From Armatimonadota bacterium (lineage in GTDB: Bacteria; Armatimonadota; UBA5829; DTJY01): a stretch of DNA of 64,000 nucleotides. The notes under the pieces are model-generated. The model saw only the letters and a program-made list of their open reading frames with translations. It was not told the DNA's origin and searched no databases. Shown piece by piece: positions 12,518 through 48,858 of the stretch. The stretch lies in the NCBI GenBank assembly GCA_017993055.1, contig JAGONM010000002.1, positions 68,821 through 132,820 on the forward strand. Direction: 5' to 3'. A program made the position numbers and the translations under genes. How positions within the stretch are numbered: position 1 is the first letter of the stretch; each line of letters starts with the position of its first letter.

Positions 12518-12526
12518 ACTCGTACT

Positions 12527-18188: not shown

Positions 18189-18200
18189 CTAAAACCCCTG

Positions 18201-19556: not shown

Positions 19557-19557
19557 G

Positions 19558-25659: not shown

Positions 25660-26994
25660 ATGCTGATAGGTTTCCTTGCTTTCGAACTGATTCTGCTGCT
25701 GCTAGGACTGGCGATGCTGGTGCGTCCGAAGGCGGCCAATGTCCTCGAACGGCGAGTGCTGTGCGCATTGCGCATCAGGAAGCGGGAGTCGCGAGACCGG
25801 CCGATCCCCAAGTGGCACAATGTGGTTACGGTCATCCTGGGCGCCGTCGTGGTCGCGTTTGTCATCAGCGATTGGTCGGGCCTGCGGGTATGCTCTCTGG
25901 GTGTGGAGGTGCCCATGGTCACCTCCGGACCGCTGTCACCGGAGTCCGCGAAGCGGATCGATGATCTTGTCGTTCCAGAGATCAGGTCCGGCAAGCACGT
26001 CGGGATGGTGGTAGGCATCATAGACGGTGACAGGACTTGGACGCGTGGCTATGGCCGTAAGTCCACAGGACTCGGCGATCCCCCGGACGGAGACAGCATC
26101 TTCGAAATCGGTTCCATGACCAAGACCTTTACCTGCACCGTGCTCTCGGCCATGGTTGAGAGGGGCCGGGTACGACTCGATGATCCCGTCGGACGCTATC
26201 TTCCATCGTCTGTTCACGTTCCAACGTATGGGTCGAAACAGATCACGCTGGAGATCCTGGCGATGCACACGTCCGGCCTGCCCCGCGTGGCCGACAACAT
26301 GGGGCTTGCCTCTGACTTCAGCGATGATCCATATGCCGACTACCGTGATGAGCAGCTGTACGAGTTCCTTAACACTCACAAGCTGAGGAAGAATCCCGGG
26401 GCAGAGCATGAATACTCCAATCTTGGAATGGGGCTGCTCGGACTGGCGCTTTCTCGCGAGACAGGTGTCAACTATGAGCAGATGGTTACCGGGCTTGTCT
26501 GCAAGCCTCTCGGGATGCGGGATACCACCGTCACGCTTTCCGATTCGCAGAGAGGCAGGCTTGTCCAGGGCTATGCCGTACAGGGTCGGCTGGGGAACAT
26601 ACTCCTCACCGTTCCATCGCGGAACTGGAGCTTCCAGGACTGCACCGCTGGCGCCGGAGCGCTGAAGTCCACAGCAAACGACATGCTCAGATATCTGCAG
26701 GCGAACATGGCTGCGCCCGGCGGCGATCTGGGGCAGGCACTGCAGATCGCCCATACGCCGAGACTCAAGATAGATGATGCAGAGAGCGTAGGGCTTGGTT
26801 GGTTCATGCTCAATGTTCCGTGGGCGGACGAACCGGTGATCTGGCACAACGGCGGCACAGGCGGATATTGCAGTTTCGTGGGCTTCTGCAAGAAGCGGCG
26901 GCTCGGCGTGGTGGTCCTTGCCAACTCAGCCACCGATGTTGATATCACCGCGCTTCGCATACTGAAGGCCCTGATCAGGAGAAGCGGCCAATGA
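25660..26994 (+). CDS. membrane-anchored serine hydrolase of the beta-lactamase/transpeptidase (class C/PBP-like) fold
   Basis: Two N-terminal TM helices, then SxxK active-site motif ([10 protein letters not shown]), with YSN and HNGGT-type downstream motifs (HNGGTGGY). Confidence 0.75.
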
Positions 26995-27215: not shown

Positions 27216-28643
27216 CTATTCCGTCTTTGCCGTCGCCAGCTTCCCGAACCGGTTCGCGATCGCCAGCGCCGGGTCGACCGGCACGTCAGCCGGGACGACA
27301 TCCTTCGGGATGTCGATGATCGGGAGCGCCTGGGGCTGCTTGCCGCCGAACTGAGGCAGCCACTTCGCCTCCGCCGCGAACATCTCCCGCGCCATTTCTC
27401 TCGCCTCATAGAGCGTGCAGACCGCCCCCGTCAGCGGATCGAGCGCCACCGCCTGAGCCGCGAGTTCCGTATCGCCGGTCAGTGCCGCCTCAGCGGTCAA
27501 CTGCTGCACGATCACGTTTGTCATGTTGCACGCCGCGAGTTGAGGCGGAAGGTCGCCGACCACCGTCGGATGCAGGCCCATGCGGTCGATGAACATCGGC
27601 ACCTCGACGCAGCACCCGTTCGGCAGGTTCGTGATGAACCCATCGTTCCGCACGTTGCCGTTCAGCCGGAAGATGTTGCCGGTCTCCTTCGCCTCCATGA
27701 TGTAGGAGCAGTATTCGGCGCTTCGCGGGGTCAGCTTCTTCGACTCGATGCTGAGCGGGTCGGTGTTCCTGAACTTGTCCTCGAGCATCCGGCCGTACTT
27801 GTAGTACGCGCCCGACGCGCCGCCGAAGTCCGGCATATCGCAGTAGAGGTCGAGCGCCTTCTTGTTCTTGCGGAACCAGGGCAGGTACTCGGAGAGGTGG
27901 CCGGTGCTCTCGGTCATGAAGTAGCCGAAATGCCGGTAGACCTCGCCTCGGACCTTCTCGTTGATGTAGTACTCGGGCTTCTCGAACTTCTCGCGCAGGA
28001 TCGGGTAAAGATCCTTGCCGTCCTTCTCGAGCCTCAGGAACCACGCCATGTGGTTGATCCCGGCGGCGAGGTAATCAATCTCCTCCTTCGGAACGCCGAC
28101 GTATCCGGCGATCAGGTCCATCGTCGTCTGGACGCCGTGGCAGAGTCCGACGAACTGCAACTTGGGGACTGTGCCGAGCGCCCAGCAGTTCGCCGCCATC
28201 GGGTTCGCGTAGTTCAGCATGATGGCGTCGGGGCACAGCTCCATCATGTCGTTGGCGATGTCTACCAGGACCGGGATCGTCCTCAGCGCCCGGAAGATGC
28301 CACCCGGGCCGAGCGAGTCGCCGATGCACTGGTCGACGCCGTACTTCAGCGGGATCTCCCAGTCGGCCTGGAATGCATCCATCCCTCCGATCTGGATCAT
28401 GATGACCACGTAGTCGGCGCCGTCGAGCGCCTGCCGACGATCGGTGGTCGCAGAGATCCTCGACGGAAGGTTGTTCTCCCGCACGACGTCCTTCGCGAAC
28501 GCCTCCATCTTGCGGAGTCGGTCCTCCGCCGGGTCCATCAGGGCGAACTCGCTCGCCTCCAGGGCGGGCGTGGCCATGATGTCGTTCATCAGCGTCTTGG
28601 TGAATATGACGCTTCCCGCGCCGATCATTGCGATTTTGGGCAT
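27216..28643 (-). CDS. glycoside hydrolase family 4 (NAD+/Mn2+-dependent alpha-glucosidase/alpha-galactosidase-type)
   Basis: MPKIAMIGAGSVIFT N-terminal NAD-binding fold, and GLCHGV ... INHMAW motifs typical of GH4. Confidence 0.85.
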   Translation of the reverse strand: MPKIAMIGAGSVIFTKTLMNDIMATPALEASEFALMDPAEDRLRKMEAFAKDVVRENNLPSRISATTDRRQALDGADYVVIMIQIGGMDAFQADWEIPLKYGVDQCIGDSLGPGGIFRALRTIPVLVDIANDMMELCPDAIMLNYANPMAANCWALGTVPKLQFVGLCHGVQTTMDLIAGYVGVPKEEIDYLAAGINHMAWFLRLEKDGKDLYPILREKFEKPEYYINEKVRGEVYRHFGYFMTESTGHLSEYLPWFRKNKKALDLYCDMPDFGGASGAYYKYGRMLEDKFRNTDPLSIESKKLTPRSAEYCSYIMEAKETGNIFRLNGNVRNDGFITNLPNGCCVEVPMFIDRMGLHPTVVGDLPPQLAACNMTNVIVQQLTAEAALTGDTELAAQAVALDPLTGAVCTLYEAREMAREMFAAEAKWLPQFGGKQPQALPIIDIPKDVVPADVPVDPALAIANRFGKLATAKTE

Positions 28644-28688
28644 ATCAGGAACCTCCTTCGGAGTAATGGAGTCATGGACTACTTGGTC

Positions 28689-29669
28689 TCAGATCGATTT
28701 TCCTGCGACCTTGAGCACGCCGAGCGCGTCCGCCGTAACCCACTCGTTCATGCGTGTCTTGCTGACCTTGCCCCAGGAGACGGTCTCGCCTCGTCCACTG
28801 AGGTCTTTCGTCACGGCGTAGAACCGCTCCTCCGCCGGCCAGCCGCCGTCCGGGAGGCGCTTCGATTCCAGGAGATCGAGCGCATCGGCGCACCGGGGAT
28901 CGGAGATGTACCCGCCCTCGGCCATCACCTTCAGCCCGAACAGGATGTCGTACCGCCAGTAGCAGGGGTAATGCAGCCGCACGAACTGCGGGTTCATCAC
29001 CCCGCCATCGCTGATCCGATGAAACAGCCGGCGGCTCAGGAATACCTCCGCGGCCCGATCCGCTGCCTGTTTCGCCTGCTTGTCACCCGTCGCCTGGGCA
29101 TACGCTATCAGCCCTCGGAGCGGGATCAGCGTCTCCCAGAACGACGAGGTATCGGCCTCGGGATTCTTGTCGCAGTTCCAGCCGCCGTCCGGCCACTGAG
29201 TCTTGATCAACAACTCGGCGAAATCATGGCATCGGTCGCTGATCAGTCCCAATGCCACCGTGGAGAAGAGCGCATTCCCCGGCAGAGATGCGCAGAACCT
29301 GGCCCTGCCGTTGAGGCGATTGGGCCACTTGCCTTCACAGAACTGCTTGCTGACCAGCGGGCCGAAATCGAAGTCCTGCACCTGATCCCGCATCGGGATC
29401 AGCTCCGGATCGCCAGTCGGATATCCGATATCCGCCAGATGCGCGAAGACCCAGTGAGCGCCCTTCCACTTCTTGTAGGTCTGGTTCTGCCTGAAGATCC
29501 GGCCGCTCTCGTCGCGGTTGCTCAGGAGCGCGCGCACCCTCGGCGAGTCCTTGACCTTCCGCCGAAGGTCTGCCAGCGAATCCTCCGCATCTCCGAGCAC
29601 CCGGCTCCGTACCTTCCACCGGATCGAAGGCTCATCAGATGCCAGGAGTCCGTCGACGATCTCGGACAT
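28689..29669 (-). CDS. alpha/alpha-toroid repeat protein (prenyltransferase/squalene-cyclase-like QW repeats), function unknown
   Basis: QW-type motifs IKTQWPDGGWN and RLPDGGWP. Start refined to MSEIVDGLL (1-nt gap to upstream gene). No signal peptide. Confidence 0.4.
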   Translation of the reverse strand: MSEIVDGLLASDEPSIRWKVRSRVLGDAEDSLADLRRKVKDSPRVRALLSNRDESGRIFRQNQTYKKWKGAHWVFAHLADIGYPTGDPELIPMRDQVQDFDFGPLVSKQFCEGKWPNRLNGRARFCASLPGNALFSTVALGLISDRCHDFAELLIKTQWPDGGWNCDKNPEADTSSFWETLIPLRGLIAYAQATGDKQAKQAADRAAEVFLSRRLFHRISDGGVMNPQFVRLHYPCYWRYDILFGLKVMAEGGYISDPRCADALDLLESKRLPDGGWPAEERFYAVTKDLSGRGETVSWGKVSKTRMNEWVTADALGVLKVAGKSI

Positions 29670-29670
29670 T

Positions 29671-30183
29671 CTAGCCCTTGTCCTTGTTGGCTTCCCGGAA
29701 CTCCTGCGCTCGGCGGGAGCACTCCTCGCCGAGCCACGACCACGCGCGGCGTTTCCGGTCATCCTTCCAGAACTCTTCCTGTTCGGCCAGCCATGCTTTC
29801 GTGCCGATCTTCTTCCTGCGGCGCAGGTTCTCGACGCACTGGTTATGCGTGCGCCAGATCGGGTCGAACGTGAACTGAATCAGCCTCGTGCACGGAAGTT
29901 CCTTGCAGTCGGCGCAGCTCTCGAGCTTCCTGCTGTTGACGCACTTGGCGATGTCGCAACCGTCTTCATGCCCCTGGCCGATGCACTTGCCGCAGTCGCA
30001 CCTGCACCCGTGGCAAACATCATTCAGGTAGTCGCCGCAGACCCCGCAATAAAGCCCGCACGGGGCAGCACGGAGTTCTTTCTCATCCATCAGCTTCTCT
30101 TCCTCTCCCTGTGCCGCTGCAGCATGAGCTGCAAGGCCGACTGCGGTCGCTCCCACGCCTCTGAGGAATCCGCGTCTGTCCAC
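29671..30183 (-). CDS. TAT-exported cysteine-rich protein (DUF3795-like Cys pattern)
   Basis: RRGFLRGVGATAVGLAAHAAAA twin-arginine signal, followed by CGLYCGVCGDYLNDVCHGCRCDCGKCIGQ ... CADCKELPC. Confidence 0.5.
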   Translation of the reverse strand: MDRRGFLRGVGATAVGLAAHAAAAQGEEEKLMDEKELRAAPCGLYCGVCGDYLNDVCHGCRCDCGKCIGQGHEDGCDIAKCVNSRKLESCADCKELPCTRLIQFTFDPIWRTHNQCVENLRRRKKIGTKAWLAEQEEFWKDDRKRRAWSWLGEECSRRAQEFREANKDKG

Positions 30184-30194
30184 CGTTGGTGCCT

Positions 30195-31382
30195 CTACTT
30201 CACTCCGACCTGTTCCGGGCCGAGGTTCTTGAATAGGTAGAGGCCCTCTTTCCCCGGCGCGACGATGTCGAGCTTGCCGTTGCCGTCAATGTCGCCGACC
30301 CACATGTAGATCCCGGTGCCGGACGCCTGGCCCTTCTTGCCGTAGTCGATCACGCACTTGGTGAACGACTCGCCGTTCCACTTGAAGTACCAGAGGCCGA
30401 CTATGTCCGTCTCGCCCGCCTCGTGCCCGCAGTGAGCGCGGAACCTGTTGCCGGTAACAAGCTCCTTCTCGCCGTCGCCGTCTATGTCTACCCAGATCAT
30501 GTCGTGATACTGCGAGAACCAGGGATCAATCGGATGCTTGGTCCAGGTGCGAGTGCCGTCGGCGTTGTCCTTGCGGGTATAGTAGTCGAGACCGTAACCG
30601 TGCGCCTGGCCGACGACGATCTCATTCACTCCGTCGCCGTTGACATCGGCCGCGATCATCGGCACGCTCGCGCCCCCGAAATTCCATTCCTGGTGGAACT
30701 TGTACTCGCCGGTGAGTGGGTCGCCCATCGGTTCCCACCAGCCGGTCGGGGTGATGAAGCATCCCTTGCCGTTGCCTAGCACGTCGCCGAACCCCAGACC
30801 GTGCCCCTGCGGCTCCTTGCTGATGACATACTCCTTGAACGCGCCGCCCTCGAGCTTGTAGACCCGGAGCGGGTTGCCCGGCGTGTTGGGCACGATCTCG
30901 ATCTGCCCGTCGCCGTCTACGTCCCAGCCGCGGGTCGTCTCGATAGAGCCGACTTGCGCGATGTCGTGCTTCGCCCACTCGACCGGCTTGCCTTTGGGGT
31001 TCTCGATCCAGGAGAGCGTCTGACCCCACCATCCGCCGGTGACGAAATCCATGTAGCCGTCGCCGTTCACGTCCATGGGGATCGTCGAAAAGTCGTCGAA
31101 GTACTCGTCCGCCGCCTGGACATCCCGCAGCTTGTGCTTAGTCCAGTTCGGCGCTTCGTACCAGAATCCGCCGCAGACGATGTCCAGCTTGCCGTCGTTG
31201 TTGACGTCGAAGGCACCCGCAGACTCGTACGCGCCGTCGTCTATCTTGATCTTCTCCCACTCGATCCTTCGCATGTTCCGTTGTCCTCCCGATTTATCAT
31301 CTGCGGCGCTGAGAATGCCGGCGACCGTCAGTATACCAATGCAGATTGCGACCATCAGCCTCATGATTCCTACTCCTCCCAC
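30195..31382 (-). CDS. secreted FG-GAP/VCBS-type beta-propeller repeat protein
   Basis: Signal peptide. Repeated DxNxDGxxD-type loops (DVNNDGKLDIV, DVNGDGYMDFV, DVDGDGQIEIV, DVNGDGVNEIV, DIDGDGEKELV, DIDGNGKLDIV). Confidence 0.6.
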   Translation of the reverse strand: MGGVGIMRLMVAICIGILTVAGILSAADDKSGGQRNMRRIEWEKIKIDDGAYESAGAFDVNNDGKLDIVCGGFWYEAPNWTKHKLRDVQAADEYFDDFSTIPMDVNGDGYMDFVTGGWWGQTLSWIENPKGKPVEWAKHDIAQVGSIETTRGWDVDGDGQIEIVPNTPGNPLRVYKLEGGAFKEYVISKEPQGHGLGFGDVLGNGKGCFITPTGWWEPMGDPLTGEYKFHQEWNFGGASVPMIAADVNGDGVNEIVVGQAHGYGLDYYTRKDNADGTRTWTKHPIDPWFSQYHDMIWVDIDGDGEKELVTGNRFRAHCGHEAGETDIVGLWYFKWNGESFTKCVIDYGKKGQASGTGIYMWVGDIDGNGKLDIVAPGKEGLYLFKNLGPEQVGVK

Positions 31383-31385
31383 AGG

Positions 31386-33434
31386 CTATTCCGCGCTGTC
31401 TATCGCTCGCGCTGCCGTCAAGCGCTCCACGTTGGCCCTGAACAGCCGATCGTACCGACTCTGCAGTTCGGACCGCAACCCCGGATCCGACGTGACGACG
31501 ACCATGCGGGCGACGTCAACCGTGCCGAGTGCCAGGTTCAGCTTCGAACCGGTCTGATCGTGATGAACGTCGTGGATGCCGTGCCAGTCGATCTCGAAGA
31601 CCGACTTCGCGCTCAGCCACTTGGGCAGGTCAACGCTCACCTGCGCATCCGCGACCGGCTGGATCACGATCCCCAGCCGGTCGGAAGCATAGTTATCGTT
31701 GACGATCAGGAGCACCATCGCGTCGGTTCCAGCGATGAGTGCGCGAGTCCACAGCCACCGTGAAGCGTTCGTCGGCACCCGAGCGGGGCAACTGCGCGTG
31801 AGGATCGGGCCGGCGGTTCGCACTTCCGCGCCGAGCAGCCCGATTGCATGCCAGAGCACCTTCGCTTCCGGCTCGTCGGCCATGCACCCGGACGAACCGT
31901 CGCCGCCCTTCGCTGATGGTACCAGCCACCAGTACGAGAAACTCGTCGCTCCGGATGCAAGGGCATAGTAGAGTTCGATGCGCTTCTCCTCGGGAGTCGC
32001 GAATCTGAACACCTTGTCGCCCTTGATCAGCTTTGTGCAGTTCAGCATCAGGTGCAGCGGCTTGGGCGCGCAGGAGGAGCGGCATACCGACCCGACGGCG
32101 TAGACGAACGTGGCCTTGGAGTAGTGGGGGATCATGCCGGGCTTCGTCCAGTACGCCTGCGCCAGCCTGGTCTGCATGTACGGATCGGCGGCGAAGATGT
32201 CCGGGAGCTGGCCGTACACGTACCAGTTGTCGGGCTTGAAGGTCATATCTACGTTCAGCATGTTCGGTACGGACTGATCGGCCTGCCTCAGGGTCTCTGC
32301 ATGCTCGACGAGCCCTTGTCCGATCGCGCCGACCCTCGACTGCGGTGGGAGTCTCTCGATCCTGAAGTCGGCGGTGTCCGGCTCGTCGGCAAGATACCAT
32401 GCGTGGGCTCCGGGCCACGCCTTCTCCGGCTCGCCGACAATCATCTTGATGCCGAGCGACTTCATCGCCTGCACGCCTTCTGCGCTCTTCATGTAGGCCC
32501 TCACCGCGTCCGAGCCGATGATCTCCATCTGCATGTTGATGTTGTGCACGCCCATATCGGTCACGTGCGCCCGGCCGAGTTTCAGATCCGATTCCTTCCC
32601 CGGCTTTGCGCCCCAGACGCCGTATATCAGGTCGTCGGCGTAGGCGCGAATCCCTGAGATTGCGGTCGTGGCGTCGTCGTGAACCGTCTGGAAACTGTGG
32701 TATGAACCGCGGGCAAGTGGCGATTTCGGCTTGATGACGATCGGCGTTATCCCGAGTGCCGGATCCCTGCCGATGGCGGACTGCGCCGTGACATCCATGC
32801 CGTCCATCAGGACTTTGCTGACTCCGCCGGAGTGGACATAGAGGTAGACCCGATCGAGGCCCTCAGAGAAGGAGATGCCATCGACCCGCGGCTGGACCTT
32901 CATCGGCACAGTCAAGTCCTCCATGCCCGCGGATGTCTTGACCGCCAGCTGGAGGCTCGCGGAGGGAGTGTGTCTCAGTCGGATAGTGATCTCGCCGGTC
33001 GCCGACGGAGCGATCGTGCGCGGCTCGATCTTGTACCAGATCGGCTCGCCCGCCTCGATAAGCGACTTCCGCTCGGCCTCAGTCAGATCCGAGAAGAAGA
33101 TGCTCGCGGCATAGGCGACTCCCTTGTACTTGCGCTCCCTGTTGAACGCAATCGCCCTATTCAGACCTATTCCGCCGAGCATCACATCATCAACGGTGAT
33201 AGGTCGAGTAGCCGTGTTCTTGAGGTAGACGTGGCACGATCCGCCGAGCGCGCGCCGGATCGCCTCGTCGTCCATCTGTTCCTGGGTTCCCAGTTCGATA
33301 AGGCTGCTGTCACTCCAGAAGTGCGCGTACTGCGGGAACGGGATGTCCGCGACCCACGAGGCACCGATCACCGCCGCGCCGACGGATGACGCGAGACACA
33401 GGAACGCGATAGTCGCGATCAAGAAGAGTCTCAT
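31386..33434 (-). CDS. secreted hypothetical protein, paralog A of an unrecognised ~685-aa family (possible glycan-active enzyme)
   Basis: Signal peptide. Clear paralogy to 34442-36508 (e.g. YYALASGATSFSYWWL vs YYAIGNGAKGLSYWWF; LLGAEVRTAGPILTRSCPA vs LLGAEVRTAGEIITGSCPA). No family recognised by eye. Confidence 0.5.
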   Translation of the reverse strand: MRLFLIATIAFLCLASSVGAAVIGASWVADIPFPQYAHFWSDSSLIELGTQEQMDDEAIRRALGGSCHVYLKNTATRPITVDDVMLGGIGLNRAIAFNRERKYKGVAYAASIFFSDLTEAERKSLIEAGEPIWYKIEPRTIAPSATGEITIRLRHTPSASLQLAVKTSAGMEDLTVPMKVQPRVDGISFSEGLDRVYLYVHSGGVSKVLMDGMDVTAQSAIGRDPALGITPIVIKPKSPLARGSYHSFQTVHDDATTAISGIRAYADDLIYGVWGAKPGKESDLKLGRAHVTDMGVHNINMQMEIIGSDAVRAYMKSAEGVQAMKSLGIKMIVGEPEKAWPGAHAWYLADEPDTADFRIERLPPQSRVGAIGQGLVEHAETLRQADQSVPNMLNVDMTFKPDNWYVYGQLPDIFAADPYMQTRLAQAYWTKPGMIPHYSKATFVYAVGSVCRSSCAPKPLHLMLNCTKLIKGDKVFRFATPEEKRIELYYALASGATSFSYWWLVPSAKGGDGSSGCMADEPEAKVLWHAIGLLGAEVRTAGPILTRSCPARVPTNASRWLWTRALIAGTDAMVLLIVNDNYASDRLGIVIQPVADAQVSVDLPKWLSAKSVFEIDWHGIHDVHHDQTGSKLNLALGTVDVARMVVVTSDPGLRSELQSRYDRLFRANVERLTAARAIDSAE

Positions 33435-33435
33435 C

Positions 33436-34440
33436 CTAGAACTCCTGCCACACCCGCAACTGCTCCGTGGAGGATATGAACGACGCGGTGGGCTTCTCCT
33501 GTGACCAGTCTACCTCGCCGAACCGGATGTACCCGCCGGAGACGCATGCGAGCAGCGCGCGGCTCCCCCGCTCCTTCACGACTTCGACGCCTCCTGAGTC
33601 CTTCCAGAACTCCCGGCGAGTTTCGAGATCGAAGCAGTCCATCCGGTCGCTTGCGAAGACCCAGTTGCGTACCGACGTGCCTCGCATCGTCAGGTTCGCC
33701 GTAAGCAGCCAGCGCCCGCCTCGGTTGACCAGCAGGTTCGACTCAAGGCTGCCTTGGGGATGCCCGCCCTCGAGTCGTGGCTCATATCCGTTTGCAGGTC
33801 CGACCAGTATCGGCCCATGGTCCTCCCATTCGACGAGATTTGCCGAACCGGCGAGTGCGATGCACGTCGCGCCCTCGCGCGTGTTCGCGGTGTACGTCAT
33901 CCAGACGCGGCCGTCGTGCTCCAGGAGATGGGGATCGCGGCAGCTCGATATGCTGTCTGCGCGCCAGAACGCCCAGGCCTTGTCTTTGCACGGCGATATC
34001 GGATTGCCCTCCCAGCGTTCCCATTCACAGAGGTCGTCGCTGAACGCCAGGCCGATGTCCTGTGAAATGTGCTCGTTGACGCCCGTGTAAGCCATCACGA
34101 ACCGATCTCGGTGCCGGAGGATCGTCGGCGCCCAGACATGCGCGCCCTCCCAGGTCCCCGGACGGATGAGCATTACGGGGTCGTGTACTTCCCACTGGAG
34201 GAAGTCGGGGGTGCTCGCGTGGCCGAAGTAAATCTCGTTGCCGGGGTGGAAGGGCGTGCCCTCGGCGAGCCGGCGCTCGATATAGAAGAAGTGGTGACGG
34301 CCATGGTGCTCGGCGGTCGCGAAGTCGGCCACATTGCCGCTCACCGGCCGAAAACCCTGCCCGACGATATCGAGGGCAGGGCGGCGGTATTTCTCCATCC
34401 GCATCGCGAAGAGAGTCTTCTCGAACTCGATGTTGTTCAT
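33436..34440 (-). CDS. five-bladed beta-propeller glycoside hydrolase-like protein (GH32/GH43/GH130 furanosidase-type fold)
   Basis: HHFFYIER and RDPH motifs and W-rich blades, reminiscent of the GH32/43 beta-propeller. No signal peptide. 2-nt gaps to both flanking paralogs. Confidence 0.5.
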   Translation of the reverse strand: MNNIEFEKTLFAMRMEKYRRPALDIVGQGFRPVSGNVADFATAEHHGRHHFFYIERRLAEGTPFHPGNEIYFGHASTPDFLQWEVHDPVMLIRPGTWEGAHVWAPTILRHRDRFVMAYTGVNEHISQDIGLAFSDDLCEWERWEGNPISPCKDKAWAFWRADSISSCRDPHLLEHDGRVWMTYTANTREGATCIALAGSANLVEWEDHGPILVGPANGYEPRLEGGHPQGSLESNLLVNRGGRWLLTANLTMRGTSVRNWVFASDRMDCFDLETRREFWKDSGGVEVVKERGSRALLACVSGGYIRFGEVDWSQEKPTASFISSTEQLRVWQEF

Positions 34441-34441
34441 C

Positions 34442-36508
34442 CTACCGGCCGAGGATCTTCGCTGTGTTCGCCGCGTACTTGCCCTCGTACTCCTTCTGCA
34501 GGCGGTCGCGGAGGGCCGGGTCGGATGTGATCAGGACGAATCGGCTGATATCCACCTTGTCGAACGTAATGGTCACCTTCGAACCGTTGCGCTCCCACGC
34601 CATGCCTGTGACTCCACGGTGTGTTACCTCCATCACCCCTGCCGGATCGAGCCACGCCGGAATCTCGATCGTCACCGATGCTTTCTCGACGGGTTTGTAC
34701 ACCGTGCCGACCCGATCACACGCGACATCGTCGTTGACGACCACAAGCGCGATGGTATCGGCGCCCGACAGCAGTGTGCGAGTCCACAGCTCCTTAGGCG
34801 CCTCGACGTTCAAGTCCGCTGGACAACTTCCGGTGATGATCTCGCCGGCCGTCCGCACTTCGGCTCCCAGGAGGCCGATCTCCTTCCAGAGCGCCTTCGC
34901 TTCAGGCTCGTCCGTGCCGAGCCCCACGCAGTTCACGTCGGGCGCGAACCACCAGTACGAGAGGCCCTTCGCGCCGTTGCCGATCGCGTAGTAGACCTCC
35001 ATGCGCTTCTCCTCCGGGGTTGGGTATCTACCCTTCTGGCCCTTCTTCTCGTCCTGGTATCTCGTCGAGCAGAGGATCACGTGAAGGGGCTTCGGTTGGC
35101 ACGATGACTGCGAGATGGTGGTGACCGCGCTGACGTACGTCGGCTTCGAATGTACCGCCAGCGTGCCGGGGTGGTTGAAGTACGTCTGATCGAGCTGCTC
35201 CGGGTAATATGGGTCAACGCATGGGATGTCTGCGAGTTGGTGATACATGTACCAGTTCTCGGGTTTGTAGGTGTTGTCTATATTGAGCAGCAGGGGGACT
35301 CTCGGGTTGTGTTCCCGCAGCGCCCCGGACCACCGGATCAGCCACATGCCGAGCGATCCGAGTCGGTCCCACGCTTCGAGTGCGTCCGTCGCCACGTCGT
35401 GAGCATCAGGCTCGTCCTGCACGAAGAAGAACGTCGGATCGTACGGGCCGACATCCCAGGTGGTCATCCGGCCCATGCCGAGCGTCTTGCAGAACTCCCA
35501 TCCTTTCTCGCTCACGAAGAAGCTGTGTCCGGCGTGGGTGGAGTGGCCCATGTGGCAGTTGATGTTGTGCGCGGCCCAGTCGGTCAGGTATTCCTTCCCC
35601 ACCTTCTCGGAACTGCCGCCGCCGCGTCCTCCGCCCCACATTCCGTATACCATTTCACGGCCCCAGGCGCGGGTGCCCGCGACCGCTGCCGAGCCGTCCG
35701 GGTAGGTGACCTTGAGGTTCTGGTACGACATCCATTCCAGCGGAGACTGGAGCCGCAAGACTATAGGGCTGATGCTCTGCGATTCGTCCCAGGCGATCTT
35801 GCACGAGGACGTCAGGTCCTTGCCGTTCAGGAAGACCTTAGTCGGCCTCATTCCGGTCCCCGGGTGCTTCGGGTAGAGGTAGATTGTCGAGAGGTCGGGG
35901 CTGAAGCTGATGGTGGCGAAACGAGGCTGGCTGCGGTCGGTCTCGACCACGGTGGATAGCGATACGTTCTCGCCGATGATGCCGACGGTGAGCTTGTCAA
36001 GCCTCGGAGCGCGCTTCATCCTGATCACGATTTCGCCCATGCCGTGCGAGGGGATTACCCTCGGCTCGGCTCTCCACCAGGCAGGCCATCCGGCTTCCTT
36101 GAGAAGCTCGATCTGCTTCTGCGGCAGTCCGGAGAGCAGGATGCTTGCCCCGTACTTGTCTTCGGGGCTCTCGGTCACGTCGGTTACGCCGATTCCCTGA
36201 GAGAGCTTGATGCCCCCTATAGTAACGTCCTTGATCGCGAGCCTGTCGAAGCTGCTGTTCCTGACGTAGACGAAAAGGTACCCCCCGAGAGGCATCCCGG
36301 GGCGCGCGTAGAGCAGCTTGCTGCCGTCAGGCCCCTTGAGCGACCATCCTTCCTGCCAGAGCGGCATGAACTCGGGAAACGGCTCGTCCGCGAAGTATGC
36401 CGACCCCACTACCACCGGTTGGGCGACCGCCATGGCGGCGATGCAGGCAATCAGAACCATCGTTGCCACAACAATCCTTGTTCTCATATCAAGTCTCCTC
36501 AGAGTCAC
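34442..36508 (-). CDS. secreted hypothetical protein, paralog B of the same ~685-aa family
   Basis: Signal peptide/TM (IVVATMVLIACIAAMAVA). Collinear similarity to 31386-33434 along the full length. Confidence 0.5.
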   Translation of the reverse strand: MTLRRLDMRTRIVVATMVLIACIAAMAVAQPVVVGSAYFADEPFPEFMPLWQEGWSLKGPDGSKLLYARPGMPLGGYLFVYVRNSSFDRLAIKDVTIGGIKLSQGIGVTDVTESPEDKYGASILLSGLPQKQIELLKEAGWPAWWRAEPRVIPSHGMGEIVIRMKRAPRLDKLTVGIIGENVSLSTVVETDRSQPRFATISFSPDLSTIYLYPKHPGTGMRPTKVFLNGKDLTSSCKIAWDESQSISPIVLRLQSPLEWMSYQNLKVTYPDGSAAVAGTRAWGREMVYGMWGGGRGGGSSEKVGKEYLTDWAAHNINCHMGHSTHAGHSFFVSEKGWEFCKTLGMGRMTTWDVGPYDPTFFFVQDEPDAHDVATDALEAWDRLGSLGMWLIRWSGALREHNPRVPLLLNIDNTYKPENWYMYHQLADIPCVDPYYPEQLDQTYFNHPGTLAVHSKPTYVSAVTTISQSSCQPKPLHVILCSTRYQDEKKGQKGRYPTPEEKRMEVYYAIGNGAKGLSYWWFAPDVNCVGLGTDEPEAKALWKEIGLLGAEVRTAGEIITGSCPADLNVEAPKELWTRTLLSGADTIALVVVNDDVACDRVGTVYKPVEKASVTIEIPAWLDPAGVMEVTHRGVTGMAWERNGSKVTITFDKVDISRFVLITSDPALRDRLQKEYEGKYAANTAKILGR

Positions 36509-36540
36509 TTGTCCGCAGGCGGCAGTCTGCGGAGTTCAGT

Positions 36541-38040
36541 CTATCTGCCGTACCGCTTTTCCAACTCCTCCGCGTGATGCGCCCGTCCGGACGTGCGGAG
36601 GCGCTTGCAGTACTCCTCGAGCGCACCGCGCGTGTGCAGAGGCCCACCCTCGCGCATGACGGTCCAGAGCGGATCGACGTTCGTCTGCGATGTTGCCATC
36701 ATCTCTGCCTGCCACTCGTGGAGCAGCCCCTCGGCGTACTTCACTATGTCCGAATGCTCCTCGGCTAGGTTGCTCGTCTCATGCGGGTCGCTCTCGACGT
36801 TGAACAGCATTTCCGGCGGGAAGTCCTTGAGACCGTCATGGTAGGTGCGGATCATGATCCACGGCCCGAATCGGACGGCTCGCTGGCAGCTCCACGCGCA
36901 CTGGCTCACGACGAGGTATTCGTGCCCCGACGGCGTGCCGTCTCGGAGCGTCGGCGCATAGCTCTTCCCGTCCCAGACCGGCGGGATCGGCTGACCGAGC
37001 AGTTCGGCCATCGTCGGCGGGAGGTCGAGGTTGTAGTGGAACGCCTCGTCCACCGTGCCGCTCTTCATCCCCGGCCAGCGGACGATCATCGGAATGCGGG
37101 ATGTGCACTGATCGGCGGTCTGATGATCGCCGTAGACGTTCAACTCTCCCAGGTTCTCCCCGTGGTCGGAACTGACCAGGATCACCGTGTCATCGAGCAC
37201 ACCTTCGTCGGCAAGGGCATTCAGCACCTGGCCGATATGGTCGTCCATGTACCTGATGCCAGTATCGTACCCGTTTATCCAGCGCACCCAATCCCGATGC
37301 GTCTTGATTTCCGTCGGGACACGGGGCCACTTGTAGTCCTGCGGGACATCCATGTGGATCGGCTCGCAGGCGCTGTGCGGACCGTAGCTCGCGCGGTGCT
37401 CTCGGATGATCTCCTCGGTCATCCAGGCGGGCGTCGGATCGTTCTCGAACGGCTCGCCGTATTCCATCGGTGCGCGGTAAGGCGTGTGCGGATCCCACAG
37501 GTTGAGCTGCAGGAACCAGTTGTCCTGTTTGGCGTTCCGGTCGATCCATTCGAGCGCGTGCGGAGTGACCTCATCGGCGCTCTCTAGGCCGCCCTTGCCC
37601 GGGTTCACCATCTCATTGAAGCCGGTATAGAACCACCAGGCGGAGTGGCGCTCGGCGAACGGGCTGATGGAGATCGTTCGGAATCCGGCGCGTCGGAGCA
37701 TGCTCATCCAGGCAGTCGACGATGCTGCGGTGCGGAACATCCGGCTCTCGCCCTGGATGAACGGGTCGGCGGCGGTCCCTCCGTGGCCGACGACTCCGGT
37801 ATGGATACCGAACCGGCACGCATACAGCGCCGACCTCGACGGCAGGCACGGAGCGTCCGGCGTGTAGTACTTCTCGAAACGCACGCCCTCCGATGCGATC
37901 CGGTCGAGATTCGGCGATGTGTTTCGATGGTATCCGTAGCAGCCCAGATGGTCCGGACGCAGGGTATCCAGATCGAGATAGAGAATCCTCAACGATCTTC
38001 CTCCAACTCTCCTGAGCCCCGTGCGTCCTATCGGTCCCAT
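36541..38040 (-). CDS. formylglycine-dependent sulfatase (arylsulfatase family)
   Basis: ILYLDLDTLRPDHLGCYG, then the C-x-P-x-R FGly motif CLPSRSALYA. Start refined to an internal Met to remove a 44-aa Arg-rich extension. Confidence 0.8.
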   Translation of the reverse strand: MGPIGRTGLRRVGGRSLRILYLDLDTLRPDHLGCYGYHRNTSPNLDRIASEGVRFEKYYTPDAPCLPSRSALYACRFGIHTGVVGHGGTAADPFIQGESRMFRTAASSTAWMSMLRRAGFRTISISPFAERHSAWWFYTGFNEMVNPGKGGLESADEVTPHALEWIDRNAKQDNWFLQLNLWDPHTPYRAPMEYGEPFENDPTPAWMTEEIIREHRASYGPHSACEPIHMDVPQDYKWPRVPTEIKTHRDWVRWINGYDTGIRYMDDHIGQVLNALADEGVLDDTVILVSSDHGENLGELNVYGDHQTADQCTSRIPMIVRWPGMKSGTVDEAFHYNLDLPPTMAELLGQPIPPVWDGKSYAPTLRDGTPSGHEYLVVSQCAWSCQRAVRFGPWIMIRTYHDGLKDFPPEMLFNVESDPHETSNLAEEHSDIVKYAEGLLHEWQAEMMATSQTNVDPLWTVMREGGPLHTRGALEEYCKRLRTSGRAHHAEELEKRYGR

Positions 38041-38080
38041 ATGTCCCACGGGACGGACGTGACGTATGGGACTTAGGTGT

Positions 38081-39487
38081 CTACTCCCTCGCCACCAGGG
38101 CGCTGCACCCCGGCGCGTCGGCCTGCTTCGCGCAGACGCCCAGCAGATAGTCCGGGAATCCGCCCTGTGCATCCTCGACCCCGAGTTGATAGAGGCGCTT
38201 TACCTGATCGGGATGCTCGTCCGCGATGTTCTTCGACAACCCGGGGTCGGAAGTCCTGTCGAACAGGAATCCGCCCGTGCCGTCAATCTTGATGTTCAGC
38301 CACCAGCGGTAGTCCATCACCGTGATCGCCGTACCCCATGCTACCGTTACGTGCTCTCTGATCTTGGATTCTCCGGAGACCGCGGCCTTCCAGAACGGCC
38401 GACCGTCGAACGGCTCCGGCGGATTCGCGCCCGCGAACTGCAGAACCTGTCCCGCGAGGTCGGTGTGCTGCACGAAGAGACTGCTTCTGATGCCCGCGCC
38501 GACGCCTTCGGGATGCCGGATGATGAGCGGCACGTCGTAGACCGACGGGTGCGACGGATATCCGCGCTTGCCGAGGAAGTCGTTGTCGCCGATCGAGTGG
38601 CCGTGGTCGGCGGTCACGATCAGTATCGTGTTCTCGAGGAGTCCGAGGGCACGCATGGTCTCATAGAGGTGGCCTAACCACCGGTCGCACATCGTCACCA
38701 GGCCGCTGTAGTTTGCCCGGGCGCGTTTCAAGAGCTCCGGGGGCATGGTAGTCGTGTCCATATAGCCCGAGATCACCCATTCAGGGCCGTCGGTCGGATC
38801 GTACATCCTGCGGTAGTGCTCCGGCACGAACCAGGGCTCGTGCGGGTCGAAGCTCTCGATCGTGAGGAAGAAGTTGTCCGAGTCCCGGTTCTGTTCGAGC
38901 CATCTTGCCGACTCGATCAGTACGCGGGGCGCGAAGTAGTCCTCTTCCTTGTCGCGGCCGTACATGTTCTTGACGCACTGACGGATGAACGGGGTCCGGT
39001 ACTCGTTGTGAAACTCCTTCGGAAGCCACCGATACAGCTCTTCGTCGGTCGGTTCGGGGCCGCTCCGGTACTTGTCCGTCTCCTGACCGCGAAGGAACAT
39101 CCACTGATCGAAGCCCCGCCAATAGTTCTTCGACGGCTTGAACTGATGGTAGACGTCGGAGATCATCGCGGTCCGGTAACCGTTCTCATTCAGGACTTCC
39201 GCAAGGGTCGGTTGATCCTCCGGTATCGGGCCCCATCCCGGCGCGCCGACGAAGTCGCCCTTGAGCCGGAAGTCGCCGAGGTGGAACGGGTAGACCCGCC
39301 TGCCCGTGTAGAGCGCGCGCCGGGTCGGAAGAGTGGGGAGCGACTCGGGGTACATCGCGTCCACCACGAGCGATTCCCCGGCCAGCGCGTCCAGATGTGG
39401 CGTCTGGACCTTGCCCCAGGGCGGCTCCCCGTAGCACCCTACGCAGTCCTTCCTCAGCGAATCGAAGACCAGCAGTATGATGTTCAT
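38081..39487 (-). CDS. sulfatase-family (alkaline-phosphatase superfamily) protein with Thr replacing the FGly-forming Cys/Ser (T-L-P-T-R)
   Basis: IILLVFDSLRKD ... ESLPTLPTRRALYTGRR aligns to the C/S-x-P-x-R-xxx-LxTGR signature of the neighbouring sulfatases, but with Thr at the nucleophile position. No signal peptide. Confidence 0.7.
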   Translation of the reverse strand: MNIILLVFDSLRKDCVGCYGEPPWGKVQTPHLDALAGESLVVDAMYPESLPTLPTRRALYTGRRVYPFHLGDFRLKGDFVGAPGWGPIPEDQPTLAEVLNENGYRTAMISDVYHQFKPSKNYWRGFDQWMFLRGQETDKYRSGPEPTDEELYRWLPKEFHNEYRTPFIRQCVKNMYGRDKEEDYFAPRVLIESARWLEQNRDSDNFFLTIESFDPHEPWFVPEHYRRMYDPTDGPEWVISGYMDTTTMPPELLKRARANYSGLVTMCDRWLGHLYETMRALGLLENTILIVTADHGHSIGDNDFLGKRGYPSHPSVYDVPLIIRHPEGVGAGIRSSLFVQHTDLAGQVLQFAGANPPEPFDGRPFWKAAVSGESKIREHVTVAWGTAITVMDYRWWLNIKIDGTGGFLFDRTSDPGLSKNIADEHPDQVKRLYQLGVEDAQGGFPDYLLGVCAKQADAPGCSALVARE

Positions 39488-39546
39488 TCAACTCTCTCCC
39501 TGTCAGTTTCTCCCTGTCTTCCGGCATCCTTCCGTGCTTCCGTGTT

Positions 39547-40638
39547 CTACGGGTTGGGCAGTCTCAGCTCGACCGGGAGCATCTTCGTGAACTCCTTGTG
39601 CGGCTCGGTCTGATACCAGTAGGTCGTCGAGGACCAGTCGTCGCTCCGGTCGTTCGCATGCCCGTGCTCGATCGAGACGCGGATGTTCTTTTTGAACGGC
39701 ACCGGGTCGAGGATGTGATAGCGGTAGACGCATACCTTGCCCCACTCGTTCCAGCCCTGATCGAGTTCGCTCCAAGCCTGACCGTTGTAGAGGAACGCGT
39801 TCTGCTGCATTCCCCACGCCTGGGCAAGGTAGTCCTCGCTCCCCGTGCCGTGCATGTCCGGCGGCCACTGACGCTCCCCGTCGCGGTCGATGAAGATCAT
39901 GTCGTCGCCCTCACCCCACCAGCCCTTCTGAGTGTGATCGATGGAGAAGTTCACGCCGACGTAGTGCCCGATCCCCTCGGCTTCGAGGATCAGGTAGTTG
40001 TCCTTGTCGCTGAGGTTGATGCCCTCGGGACCTTTGTGGCGCTGGTGGAACGCTTGTGAGGCCCAGACGCTGCCCTCGCCGGTCCAGCCGTCGCACGGGT
40101 TCTCCCTGCGCCACTTCGCGTGGAAGTAGAGTGTGTCGTCTCCCAGCGACTGGTGCTTCTGGTAGTCGATGTAGAAATAGAATGCGTGCACCGGCTCGGT
40201 CTGCTCGTTGACGATCTCGACGCGTGCGTGTTTGCGGAACGGCATCTGGAACCAGCAGTTCATCGCCACTCCGCCGCCGACTACGCACTGCTCGAAGCAG
40301 CTCGTATTGAACGGCGCGCACTGGTAGGAGTACGTCCGCGCATGGCCGAGCCCGAAGAAGTCGCCGACCGGCGTCTCGACCGACGGCGTCTTCTCGCCGT
40401 CCCAGTACATCCGCAGGATGAGCTTCCGCAGGTAGAGCGGATCAGGCGATGCGATGGTGAACCAGATGTGGCTGATAGCGCCCGGGCCGTCAATCTCGGC
40501 AAGCACCTTCGCCTCTCCCGGCTCGATGCGCCAGGCATCGGCATTGCGCCCGGATACGTCGTAGCTGCTCACACGTCCGACACTGAAATCCCTGGCCGTC
40601 GTGAGCGAAGACAGCATGTTGCACGGAACGATTGCCAT
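39547..40638 (-). CDS. DUF2961 / glycoside hydrolase family 172-like protein
   Basis: ISHIWFT and GTGSEDY motifs characteristic of DUF2961 (GH172: difructose-dianhydride hydrolase / alpha-D-arabinofuranosidase type). 363 aa, cytoplasmic. Confidence 0.7.
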   Translation of the reverse strand: MAIVPCNMLSSLTTARDFSVGRVSSYDVSGRNADAWRIEPGEAKVLAEIDGPGAISHIWFTIASPDPLYLRKLILRMYWDGEKTPSVETPVGDFFGLGHARTYSYQCAPFNTSCFEQCVVGGGVAMNCWFQMPFRKHARVEIVNEQTEPVHAFYFYIDYQKHQSLGDDTLYFHAKWRRENPCDGWTGEGSVWASQAFHQRHKGPEGINLSDKDNYLILEAEGIGHYVGVNFSIDHTQKGWWGEGDDMIFIDRDGERQWPPDMHGTGSEDYLAQAWGMQQNAFLYNGQAWSELDQGWNEWGKVCVYRYHILDPVPFKKNIRVSIEHGHANDRSDDWSSTTYWYQTEPHKEFTKMLPVELRLPNP

Positions 40639-40674
40639 AGATAGTCCTCCAAGAAGCAGATAACGGTACGGCCT

Positions 40675-40739
40675 GTCATTCTGAGCGAAGCGAAGAAATC
40701 CGAGATTGCCGCGAGATCCTTCGCTTCGCTCAGAATGAC
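40675..40739. repeat. 21-bp perfect inverted repeat GTCATTCTGAGCGAAGCGAAG ... CTTCGCTTCGCTCAGAATGAC (23-nt spacer) between sulfatase and GH172 genes
   Basis: Read directly. No U-tract on either side, so not a canonical terminator. Candidate operator, REP-like element or RNA-processing hairpin. Confidence 0.6.
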
Positions 40740-40752
40740 CATTCGACGAAGA

Positions 40753-42138
40753 TCAGCCGTTTACCTCGCGGAACTGGCGGTCGTCGGTCCGAAGTCTGAA
40801 GTCGAGCAGTTCGTGTCTCAAGCGCCGGACCTCTCCGATTGTGTCCGGCCGCCCCGCGAGGTTCAGCGATTCGGTCGGATCCTCGGCCAGGTCAAATAGC
40901 TGGAGCACGTCATTGCGGGTGTTCACTGTCATCTTCCATCGGCCGTCGGAGATCATGGCGCGGTCAAAAATCTCGCTGACGACTACCGAGGATCCGACCG
41001 CCGATCCGTCGAGCGCTGGATGGACCGCCCGCCCGAAGACGTTGGCTCGAGGCTCGCATCCGGCGGCATCGAGCAGCGTGGCCGTCAGATCGGTGAGCGA
41101 CACGAGGCTGTCGGATTTCATGGGTGCAGGGACCCCTCCGGGCGGACGAATGATCGCCGGCACATGAGCCGAAGACTCAAAGAATGTCTCCTTGTGGCAC
41201 CTGCCTTTGTCGCCTGCCATCTCGCCGTGATCGCTCCAGAAGAGCACCCACGAATCCTCTCCCCTGGTCCCGTACCATGCTTCCAGGACGCGACCCATGA
41301 CCGTATCCACATGCTCGACCTTCGCCGAGTAGAGGGCTCGGAGGCGCGCGAACTGCTCGGGAGTCGTGTCCATATGATGGCCCATAAGCTTCTGATGGAA
41401 CTCGAGCGCCGGTCCGCTGAGCCATTCGGGCGCGGGATCGCGGGGCAGGGGAGGCGGCATGCCCTCCGGCGGATACGTGTCGAAGCGCTGCGGCGGGTCC
41501 CACGGATTGTGTGGGCCGCCGATCCCGACGAACAGATACAGCGGCTGGGATCGGTCGGACGACGCGATGTACTCGACCGCCTGCATGCCGATGAAGTCGT
41601 CGGCATGTTTGCCGTCCGGGAGCGGGGAAGGCCAATGCGCGAGGTCCCAGCCGACTTCCTTGCGCCTGCGGTAGTCTTCGAGGAAGAGATCGAGGATGCC
41701 GTTGGCCTCGAAGAAGTCCGTGAGGATGGACCTGGTGGTCTGCGTCGAGAGCGGCCCGGTGCACTCCCGGATGTCGTCCCATCCCAACGCACGCATGTAG
41801 GGCTCCTCCGAGCGGAGGTCCTTGCTGCCGCCGTGCGGATAGAGATGGCTCTTCCCGACGTGGCACGTGCGGTATCCTGCTTCCTTCAGGGCGTGCAGGC
41901 AGGAGTCGCCCGTGTCCGGCAGCCGGCCGATATTGTCCCACATGCCGAAGTTGTGCGGGTACATGCCGGTGAGGAACGAGGCCCGTGCCGGCATGCATAT
42001 CGGGGAGGTGGTGTAGCATCGGTCGAGTGTTAGTCCCTGGGCGGCGAGCGAATCGAGCGCCGGCGTTCGGACGTGCGGAACGCCGATCCAGTCGAACCGG
42101 TGCTGGTCTGTCATCAGGACGAGAATATCCTTCGGCAT
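40753..42138 (-). CDS. formylglycine-dependent sulfatase
   Basis: ILVLMTDQHRFD ... SPICMPARASFLTG (C-x-P-x-R). No obvious signal peptide. Confidence 0.85.
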   Translation of the reverse strand: MPKDILVLMTDQHRFDWIGVPHVRTPALDSLAAQGLTLDRCYTTSPICMPARASFLTGMYPHNFGMWDNIGRLPDTGDSCLHALKEAGYRTCHVGKSHLYPHGGSKDLRSEEPYMRALGWDDIRECTGPLSTQTTRSILTDFFEANGILDLFLEDYRRRKEVGWDLAHWPSPLPDGKHADDFIGMQAVEYIASSDRSQPLYLFVGIGGPHNPWDPPQRFDTYPPEGMPPPLPRDPAPEWLSGPALEFHQKLMGHHMDTTPEQFARLRALYSAKVEHVDTVMGRVLEAWYGTRGEDSWVLFWSDHGEMAGDKGRCHKETFFESSAHVPAIIRPPGGVPAPMKSDSLVSLTDLTATLLDAAGCEPRANVFGRAVHPALDGSAVGSSVVVSEIFDRAMISDGRWKMTVNTRNDVLQLFDLAEDPTESLNLAGRPDTIGEVRRLRHELLDFRLRTDDRQFREVNG

Positions 42139-42246
42139 GTGCTGCTCCTGCTCGTATTCCTAATCGTAATCGTACTCGAATCCGGGCGAAGCATTGGCGA
42201 TGCGATTCGGGCACTCGGTGCTCACCGATGGGCTAATGCTTCGCCC

Positions 42247-43683: not shown

Positions 43684-43686
43684 TGT

Positions 43687-47404: not shown

Positions 47405-47425
47405 TGCTCCTTTGCTCCTGGACTC

Positions 47426-48709: not shown

Positions 48710-48858
48710 GTGTTCCTCCTAGTCCGACTCTATATCTTCTGTTCGCCCAGCCGGTACGCATGCCCTCCATGATGCTTGACATCACTCCCCTCCGGTGTTA
48801 GTCTTGTGTTACTACGAACGCACTACGGCATTGTCCGTTGACCTTGGGAGTGGGACAT

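Follow-up and report, generated by a model that had tools for sequence, protein, structure and literature searches.

Tandem exported proteins of an Armatimonadota bacterium probably represent a new glycoside hydrolase family on a clan GH-A-type barrel without an acidic residue at the strand-7 nucleophile position

Three adjacent genes, here termed A, B and C, were considered in a 64,000-nucleotide (nt) stretch of the genome of an Armatimonadota bacterium (contig JAGONM010000002.1, positions 68,821 to 132,820), referred to below as the window and numbered from its first letter. Genes A and C encode paralogs that probably constitute a new glycoside hydrolase (GH) family on a known scaffold, namely, a (beta/alpha)8 barrel of the clan GH-A type in which no acid occupies the strand-7 nucleophile position and an invariant Asp-Glu pair follows strand 4. 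It is very likely that both proteins are glycosidases and probable that neither uses the canonical strand-7 nucleophile. The mode of action preferred here, namely, substrate-assisted hydrolysis of beta-linked N-acetylhexosamine (HexNAc) in sulfated glycans, is argued by analogy with characterised enzymes and is assigned a probability of about 0.3-0.35. The three genes are as follows.

34442..36487, minus strand: paralog A, 681 residues from the ATG at 36487 (the open reading frame (ORF) reaches a GTG at 36508, giving 688 residues); exported, A-like subfamily.
33436..34440, minus strand: gene B, 334 residues; single-domain five-bladed beta-propeller, GH32/GH43/GH159-like, without signal peptide.
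31386..33434, minus strand: paralog C, 682 residues; exported, C-like subfamily; the protein chosen for modelling.

When compared by BLASTP, A and C share 37% identity across 683 residues (E 2e-156), bearing out the view of an initial annotation, made by a model from the DNA letters, that the proteins flanking B are paralogous over their full length. Because GAGGAG lies 7 nt upstream of the ATG at 36487 and because a database protein 99% identical to A (P0088) is likewise 681 residues long, A most likely begins at this ATG rather than at the GTG at 36508. A single nucleotide, in each case a C on the plus strand, separates A from B (34441) and B from C (33435), where 2 nt had been counted in the initial annotation. 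The triad had also been called an operon; it is the 1-nt spacing that suggests co-transcription, with scans for promoters and terminators having returned nothing exceeding chance level. The G+C content is even, at ~62%, and nothing in the sequence suggests an artefact.

Examination of the N-termini of A and C revealed an n-region followed by a hydrophobic h-region in both, in agreement with the earlier statement that these proteins bear signal peptides. Across the family, 172 of the 190 full-length proteins showed a signal-like hydrophobic N-terminal segment in a crude hydrophobicity test. The N-terminus of A (MRTRIVVATMVLIAC...) can be read as a signal peptide or as a possible lipobox. At 36445-36487 (minus strand), MRTRIVVATMVLIA followed directly by C fits a lipobox equally well as a Sec signal with cleavage at AVA-QP, and a lipobox-like pattern was seen in eleven members of the A/C family.

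To place the family, Pfam (2025), NCBIfam (2026) and the PDB (2026) were searched. Neither A nor C matched any Pfam entry at E<=1, and a Pfam scan of 59 aligned family members at E<=10 yielded nothing real. NCBIfam returned no match for either protein, nor did a PDB sequence search with A, while the family profile matched a single PDB chain, that of a GH42 protein (5xb7; HMMER, E 0.17), over helix 7 and strand 8. The initial description of the family as unrecognised was thus upheld by all three libraries. A literature search found no described family with these features, which does not prove that none exists. In word-indexed searches, C yielded 87 relatives and A more than 219; none of them has a Pfam domain, and each, where the source gave a name, is called 'hypothetical'. 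When 1.84 billion representatives of 50%-identity clusters were searched with a HMMER profile, 960 sequences were retrieved at E<=1e-3, 613 at E<=1e-10 and 300 at E<=1e-30. The matches from genome collections were all from metagenome-assembled genomes (MAGs), of Armatimonadota, Phycisphaerae/Planctomycetota, Verrucomicrobiota, Omnitrophota and Sumerlaeota. The bit-score ratio assigns some 117 of the sampled sequences to the A-like and 106 to the C-like subfamily, indicating that the duplication is old.

An AlphaFold2 model of C generated from the 59-sequence alignment (predicted local distance difference test (pLDDT) score, 93.2; predicted template modelling (pTM) score, 0.92) comprises two or three beta-sandwich domains (residues 20-265), an eight-unit beta/alpha barrel (~270-545), a further beta-sandwich (548-648) and two terminal helices. 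The barrel is of the clan GH-A type, with helix 3 nearly deleted and a family-specific hairpin at 468-476, and its nearest folds are those of a GH164 beta-mannosidase and GH42 beta-galactosidases, followed by GH5 and GH2. In whole-chain Foldseek comparisons, the top matches were GH66 endodextranases and CITase (E 8e-14 to 3e-9; template modelling (TM) score, 0.34-0.46; 6-10% identity), because the order sandwich-barrel-sandwich is shared over the whole chain. The predicted fold of A and C is thus a known one, a clan GH-A-type barrel with flanking beta-sandwiches, and the suggestion of the initial annotation that the fold might be novel, which it had itself made dependent on no such likeness being found, has to be given up. 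Its proposal of a new glycoside hydrolase or polysaccharide lyase family survives in its first half: at the sequence level, the family may still be regarded as new, whereas nothing in the fold or motifs favours a lyase.

The segments on which the catalytic argument turns are the following.

32376..32387, minus strand: codons of D350-E351-P352-D353 of C, directly after barrel strand 4; proposed catalytic pair D350/E351.
35405..35416, minus strand: DEPD codons of A, residues 358-361 in the 681-residue numbering, located by the A/C alignment.
32034..32057, minus strand: codons of L460-H-L-M-L-N-C-T467, strand 7 of C; clan GH-A nucleophile position, with no acidic residue.
32178..32186, minus strand: codons of D417-P418-Y419 of C, at the end of strand 6; counterpart of the invariant D-x-Y of GH42.

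DEPD is invariant in the 59-sequence alignment and close to invariant in a wider set (D in 319/321, E in 321/321, P in 317/321 and the second D in 319/321). It follows the strand assigned by DSSP to residues 345-350 of C, within the motif Y-L-A-D-E-P-D in C, F-V-Q-D-E-P-D in A and [YF]-[LV]-x-D-E-P-D in the family, and appears to occupy the place of the Asn-Glu-Pro acid/base motif of clan GH-A, with E351 being preceded by Asp instead of Asn. D350, D353 and D356 are all invariant or near-invariant acids right after strand 4, and about 20 polar residues round the C-terminal face of the barrel are invariant across phyla. Since every invariant residue is retained in both A and C, both are presumably active. 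On strand 7, no conserved acid was found in columns 465-467 among about 325 diverse members, with column 465 holding mainly N (90), C (78), Y (40), H (30) or Q (20), column 466 S (185), A (55), C (29) or T (29), and column 467 T (131), C (68) or V (56).

For comparison with GH42, six plasmid-borne sequences found by tblastn with a fragment of 5xb7 were used. Although the Pfam GH42 entry (PF02449) was matched by neither A nor C at E<=1, with two of the 59 members doing best at E 0.17, hhalign gave a weak but co-linear alignment between the two families (E 0.0029 for the alignment as a whole; E 5e-4, Prob 31%, for the barrel alone). Here, strands 1-3 of C are paired with strands 1-3 of GH42, N394 with N253, D417-P-Y419 with the invariant D284-x-Y286, the PEEKRIE segment of the family with the non-catalytic PGQLRLQ, SYWW with GYWHW and C466 with the nucleophile, E318.

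A retained strand-4 Glu, an Asp directly before it and the lack of a strand-7 nucleophile together fit the pattern of a neighbouring-group glycosidase. In GH123-type beta-N-acetylgalactosaminidases, a consecutive D and E serve as acetamido stabiliser and acid/base, and the substrate-assisted mechanism of these enzymes (NgaDssm, NgaLy and others) involves no strand-7 nucleophile (PMC11087588); some members prefer sulfated N-acetylgalactosamine (GalNAc) (PMC11087588, Table 1). In alignments of the solved GH123-type enzymes, this catalytic DE falls within the strand motif H-[LV]-[AS]-D-E-P, and the Asp-Glu pair of the A/C family was found in a context like that of 8k2j, 8k2l, 8p4l and 8k2n, its placement on strand 4 coming from DSSP only.

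As such, A and C are proposed to be exported, catalytically competent glycosidases built on a clan GH-A-type barrel closest to those of GH164 and GH42, in which the strand-4 glutamate (E351 in C) would have been kept, the strand-7 nucleophile lost and the Asn before the acid/base replaced by the invariant Asp (D350). The D350/E351 pair would then carry out neighbouring-group catalysis, as in GH123, GH20 and GH18. The substrates so implied would be beta-linked 2-acetamido sugars of a sulfated, fucose-bearing glycan, in the dismantling of which neighbouring sulfatases, GH29 fucosidases and BNR proteins could take part. Coming from old subfamilies, A and C would probably differ in linkage or sulfation preference. 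Tentatively, the family may have arisen from a GH42/GH164-like scaffold and reached the chemistry of GH123, GH20 and GH18 independently, acting on sulfated HexNAc glycans in Armatimonadota and the Planctomycetes-Verrucomicrobia-Chlamydiae group, with tandem paralogs reading different sulfation or linkage.

Several observations weigh against this proposal. Searches for GH123 gave E-values of 0.02-0.5 on three sequences with hmmsearch and a Prob of 2.1% (E 0.023) with hhalign, none of them significant; DUF4091 (PF13320) was unmatched at E<=10 among the 59 aligned members, and with HMMER, neither A nor the family profile matched any GH123-type PDB chain. Being an analogy, the resemblance to GH123 would concern how the A/C family may work, not membership. 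Strand 4 was left unaligned with the 'DNE' of GH42 by hhalign, owing to some 75 extra residues that GH42 carries behind strand 3, and the terms 'after strand 4' and 'nucleophile position' both derive from DSSP order in the predicted structure and from low-probability hhalign alignments. The first place given by Foldseek to GH66 speaks for a different chemistry. No dedicated genes for the catabolism of N-acetylglucosamine or GalNAc were recognised in the window, and a 6-deoxyhexose catabolism signature present in two Phycisphaerae clusters with family genes (HpcH/HpaI aldolase, 2-hydroxyacid dehydrogenase and GFO/IDH oxidoreductase), together with GH29, fits a fucan or rhamnan target equally.

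The surroundings of the family were considered by clustering ORFs from 84 fetched loci. This revealed 98 family copies across 79 loci, including tandem arrays of two to four copies in at least nine. Sulfatases recur in 18 of the 84 loci and a GH29 alpha-L-fucosidase (Pfam 4e-84) in 10, being an immediate neighbour in about 10; BNR_2 was found in eight loci, GFO/IDH in seven and a URO-D-like protein in six, with a SASA esterase appearing at one (L094). Longer family members carry additional Ig, fn3, TSP3, PA14, NPCBM and F5/8-type-C modules, and one protein of 1598 residues (P0215) is fused to seven FG-GAP_2 repeats. Since fusions to NPCBM, F5/8-type-C, PA14, Ig and FG-GAP modules occur in these other members, an enzyme rather than a binding protein is indicated. 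The P0215 fusion moreover ties the family to the FG-GAP gene found next to C (30195-31382, minus strand), a Rosetta-stone hint that the two act together.

The main rival to substrate-assisted hydrolysis is a retaining alpha-glycosidase of the GH66/GH27/GH31/GH29/GH107 type, in which D350 or D353 would be the nucleophile and D417 the acid/base, and the activity of which, for example as an endo- or exo-fucanase or a rhamnosidase, would be directed at sulfated deoxyhexose polymers with alpha linkages. GH66 enzymes are retaining alpha-glucanases whose nucleophile is an Asp on strand 4 and whose acid/base, a Glu, is found on strand 6, and in the A/C family, an invariant Asp ends both strand 4 and strand 6. 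The same layout draws on the Foldseek ranking with its common domain order, on the GH29 genes adjoining family members and on the Phycisphaerae aldolase, dehydrogenase and oxidoreductase, which typify non-phosphorylative fucose/rhamnose catabolism. However, D417-x-Y419 and D412 are common to GH42 (invariant D279, D284 and Y286) and are probably inherited scaffold residues, for which we know of no catalytic role in GH42, and these alpha-families are not, to our knowledge, characterised by a Glu that directly follows the Asp and never varies. An alpha-retaining enzyme is considered rather doubtful.

Distinctly unlikely is a classical retaining clan GH-A beta-glycosidase, galactosidase- or mannosidase-like, whose nucleophile has moved off strand 7, the candidate being E483 at the start of helix 7, behind hairpin 468-476. 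That E483, K484 and E487 are invariant in the 59 sequences and lie on the catalytic face of the model, in the loop between strand 7 and helix 7, is in line with such an enzyme, as is the nature of the nearest folds, i.e., beta-mannosidase and beta-galactosidases. In the wider set, however, E483 is replaced in 29 of 335 sequences (by S, C, T or D in 26) and E487 in 83 of 334 (by M or Q in 60), as compared to an E351 conserved in 321 of 321, and the PEEKRIE segment that includes these residues lies opposite a non-catalytic stretch of GH42. An inverting glycosidase, with E351 as general acid and with D353 or D356 activating water, is very unlikely: the acids D350, D353 and D356 do cluster right after strand 4 and strand 7 does lack a nucleophile, yet no structural evidence places D353 or D356 facing the -1 subsite, and clan GH-A is, as far as we know, uniformly retaining. 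It is highly improbable that the family comprises non-catalytic, exported glycan-binding or scaffold proteins derived from a dead glycosidase, given that, for all that the canonical nucleophile is missing and that no member has a known activity, the polar residues round the C-terminal face of the barrel are invariant across phyla, the carbohydrate-binding module (CBM)-type modules fused to members normally serve enzymes and tandem multi-paralog arrays are as in typical CAZyme families.

The triad is found in an array of genes pointing in the same direction, parts of which are listed here.

27216..49845, minus strand: co-directional glycan-utilisation array of ~22 kb that contains the triad.
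30195..31382, minus strand: FG-GAP/VCBS repeat protein, 395 residues (Pfam FG-GAP_3, 4e-24), 3 nt downstream of C.
36541-38172, minus strand: S1-type sulfatase-like gene (Pfam Sulfatase, 9e-44), directly upstream of A.
38081-39487, minus strand: S1-type sulfatase-like gene (Pfam Sulfatase, 8e-37), second upstream of A.
39547-40638 and 45143-47404, minus strand: DUF2961 (GH172) genes among the sulfatases.

The array runs in the order GH4, a 357-residue protein, DUF3795, FG-GAP, C, B, A, two sulfatases, GH172, three sulfatases, a second GH172 and a pectate-lyase-like protein; it also includes a 340-residue protein, and its totals come to five sulfatases and two GH172 proteins. A GH116 and a GFO/IDH oxidoreductase are found farther along. 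Pfam annotation of these neighbours agrees with the initial picture of a locus rich in sulfatases and glycoside hydrolases. When compared with the PDB, the sulfatases of the window returned only distant relatives of mixed specificity and so gave no subfamily, and hence no hint as to substrate. In the sulfatase-like gene at 38081-39487, the formylglycine position is held by Thr (T-L-P-T-R-R-A-L-Y-T-G) and no signal peptide is present, while the other six S1-type sulfatases of the window keep C-x-P-x-R; judging from these residues, the product may be a Thr-nucleophile phosphoesterase-like or inactive variant. On the opposite strand, a beta-lactamase-family gene (25660-26994, plus strand) breaks the co-directional array between GH4 and GFO/IDH and is absent from a syntenic locus (L004). 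Elsewhere in the window, 8132-20406 (minus strand) encodes a methylenetetrahydrofolate reductase (MTHFR), two glutamate-synthase-domain proteins, a GXGXG/GATase protein, a CCG (HdrB-like) protein and a 1461-residue multi-FAD/4Fe-4S protein. These redox genes look like an electron-bifurcating MetF/Hdr-type module and likewise follow the glycan array in L004. Four clustered tRNA genes (Leu-GAG, Val-CAC, Gly-CCC and Cys-GCA) are found at 63653-63980 (plus strand).

Related loci were compared to the window, with the closest genome being an uncultured Armatimonadota MAG (OY970325.1). The arrangements seen were as follows.

Window: A - B - C.
L001: A - Metallophos - C, with Metallophos in place of B.
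L091: A - Metallophos - B - C.
L093: A - third divergent paralog - B - C.
L004/L007: a single C-type gene, with flanking genes 84-92% identical to those of the window and in the same order; L004 lacks A and B.

The stretch between the last sulfatase and the FG-GAP gene is thus a variable cassette among relatives. The third paralog of L093 is 27% identical to A and retains DEPD and DPY. The FG-GAP gene is syntenic in L001, L004, L007 and L091 and is as such a conserved partner of the A/C family in the closest genomes. C itself (31386-33434) shares only 69-77% identity with its orthologs in L001, L004 and L007, as opposed to 84-92% for the flanking FG-GAP, GH172, GH4, GH116 and 357-residue proteins in the same genomes; the barrel family either diverges more rapidly than the genes around it or has been exchanged. 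In L091, a PIG-L-family deacetylase and a GNAT acetyltransferase are encoded between sulfatases just upstream of the A ortholog (1317-3494), a small hint of N-acetylated sugars.

Gene B matched Pfam GH32N (5e-14; 52.9 bits versus a cutoff of 22.1) and GH43 (35.2 bits versus a cutoff of 32.2), as well as GH130, and was modelled as a single five-bladed propeller (pLDDT 93.4). D39, R168-D169-P170 and E233 are invariant in the B family, the top 120 matches of which, from several phyla, are at least 60% identical and annotated only as 'GH43/DUF377-like' or hypothetical. Unlike GH32 enzymes, B consists of one domain, without the C-terminal beta-sandwich, and the N-terminal WMNDPNG nucleophile motif is not recognisable: no NDPN is visible, the equivalent stretch reads 'GNVADF' and the Pfam GH32N match begins at profile position 17. 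The initial annotation had placed B in the cytoplasm. Indeed, B has no signal peptide, nor does any signal appear in the other Armatimonadota orthologs (331-337 residues), whereas orthologs from Phycisphaerae and Planctomycetota (P0411, P0417 and P0437) carry twin-arginine translocation (TAT) signal peptides, such that a cytoplasmic location would be specific to this lineage.

Cases of B directly next to family genes are confined to the window, L091 and L093. Since it is not adjacent in 84 other loci, B was rejected as a partner common to the whole family, although in two Phycisphaerae clusters (L014 and L015 were compared) a distance of 10-14 kb separates a B ortholog from a family gene. With B replaced in L001 and missing from L004, the earlier idea that A and C share a substrate with B is weakened, and a functional link is possible but weak. 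B is proposed to be a furanosidase-type propeller in its own right that joined the array in this lineage. Characterised GH172 enzymes cleave alpha-D-fructofuranosides or alpha-D-arabinofuranosides, and the presence of two GH172 genes along with the GH32/GH159-like B is a hint that the target glycan contains furanosides. A commoner partner than B is an unnamed family of ~498 residues, termed Prop498, present in 13 of the 84 loci (e.g., L014 6447-7916 and L060 148-1644), where it usually adjoins an A/C-family gene, including in many Phycisphaerae and Planctomycetota loci. Prop498 gave a faint GH43 signal (E 0.007) and showed weak similarity to B (E 0.004).

Planctomycetota, Verrucomicrobiota and related phyla are degraders of sulfated glycans, and their loci abound in unnamed genes. 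The A/C family is large and exported; a genome often encodes several copies, consistently beside sulfatases and fucosidases, yet annotation based on Pfam, NCBIfam and the PDB has missed them. If active, it would supply a missing step in models of sulfated-glycan turnover, and if the proposed mechanism is true, it would show clearly how a clan GH-A barrel can be re-wired to function without its nucleophile.

A number of known systems can be set beside the family. The GH174 and GH187 endo-fucanases, to which attention was drawn by the key residues D119/E120 of Fun174A, are described as beta-sheet folds (PMC12534559) and were ruled out, as A and C are predicted TIM barrels. GH185 (DUF4838) was dismissed for want of a Pfam match, and DSSM_1, the uncharacterised protein of PMC11087588 with a GH66-like barrel, showed no similarity to the A/C family across the 399 residues compared. 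GH66 endodextranases and CITase resemble the family in the order N-terminal sandwich, barrel and C-terminal sandwich, in the Asp at the end of strand 4 and in the acidic residue at the end of strand 6, a likeness seen in structure only (Foldseek), since Pfam GH66 was matched by neither A, C nor the 59 aligned members and the sequence signal points instead to GH42. GH123-type enzymes share with the family an N-terminal beta-sandwich followed by a (beta/alpha)8 barrel, as well as a D-E-P that ends a hydrophobic strand (H-L-A-D-E-P as opposed to Y-L-A-D-E-P in C).

GH42 and GH164 have in common with the family a weak but co-linear signal in sequence across strands 5-8, the D-x-Y of strand 6, an aromatic W on strand 8 and, as it appears, a Glu immediately following strand 4. 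They differ in that identity is only 12-16%, that helix 3 is almost deleted in A and C, that the Asn before the putative acid/base is Asp and that the strand-7 nucleophile Glu is replaced by Ser, Cys or Ala. GH42 enzymes are mostly cytoplasmic, whereas A and C are exported; A and C also have N-terminal beta-sandwiches and lack the GH42M trimerisation domain, with no Pfam match to Glyco_hydro_42M having been obtained and the barrel of C being followed by the all-beta region and two helices described above. The scaffold, then, is ordinary; what is unusual is to see a GH42/GH164-like barrel combined with DEP(D) and a strand 7 without nucleophile in a family that is exported, multi-copy and sulfatase-associated.

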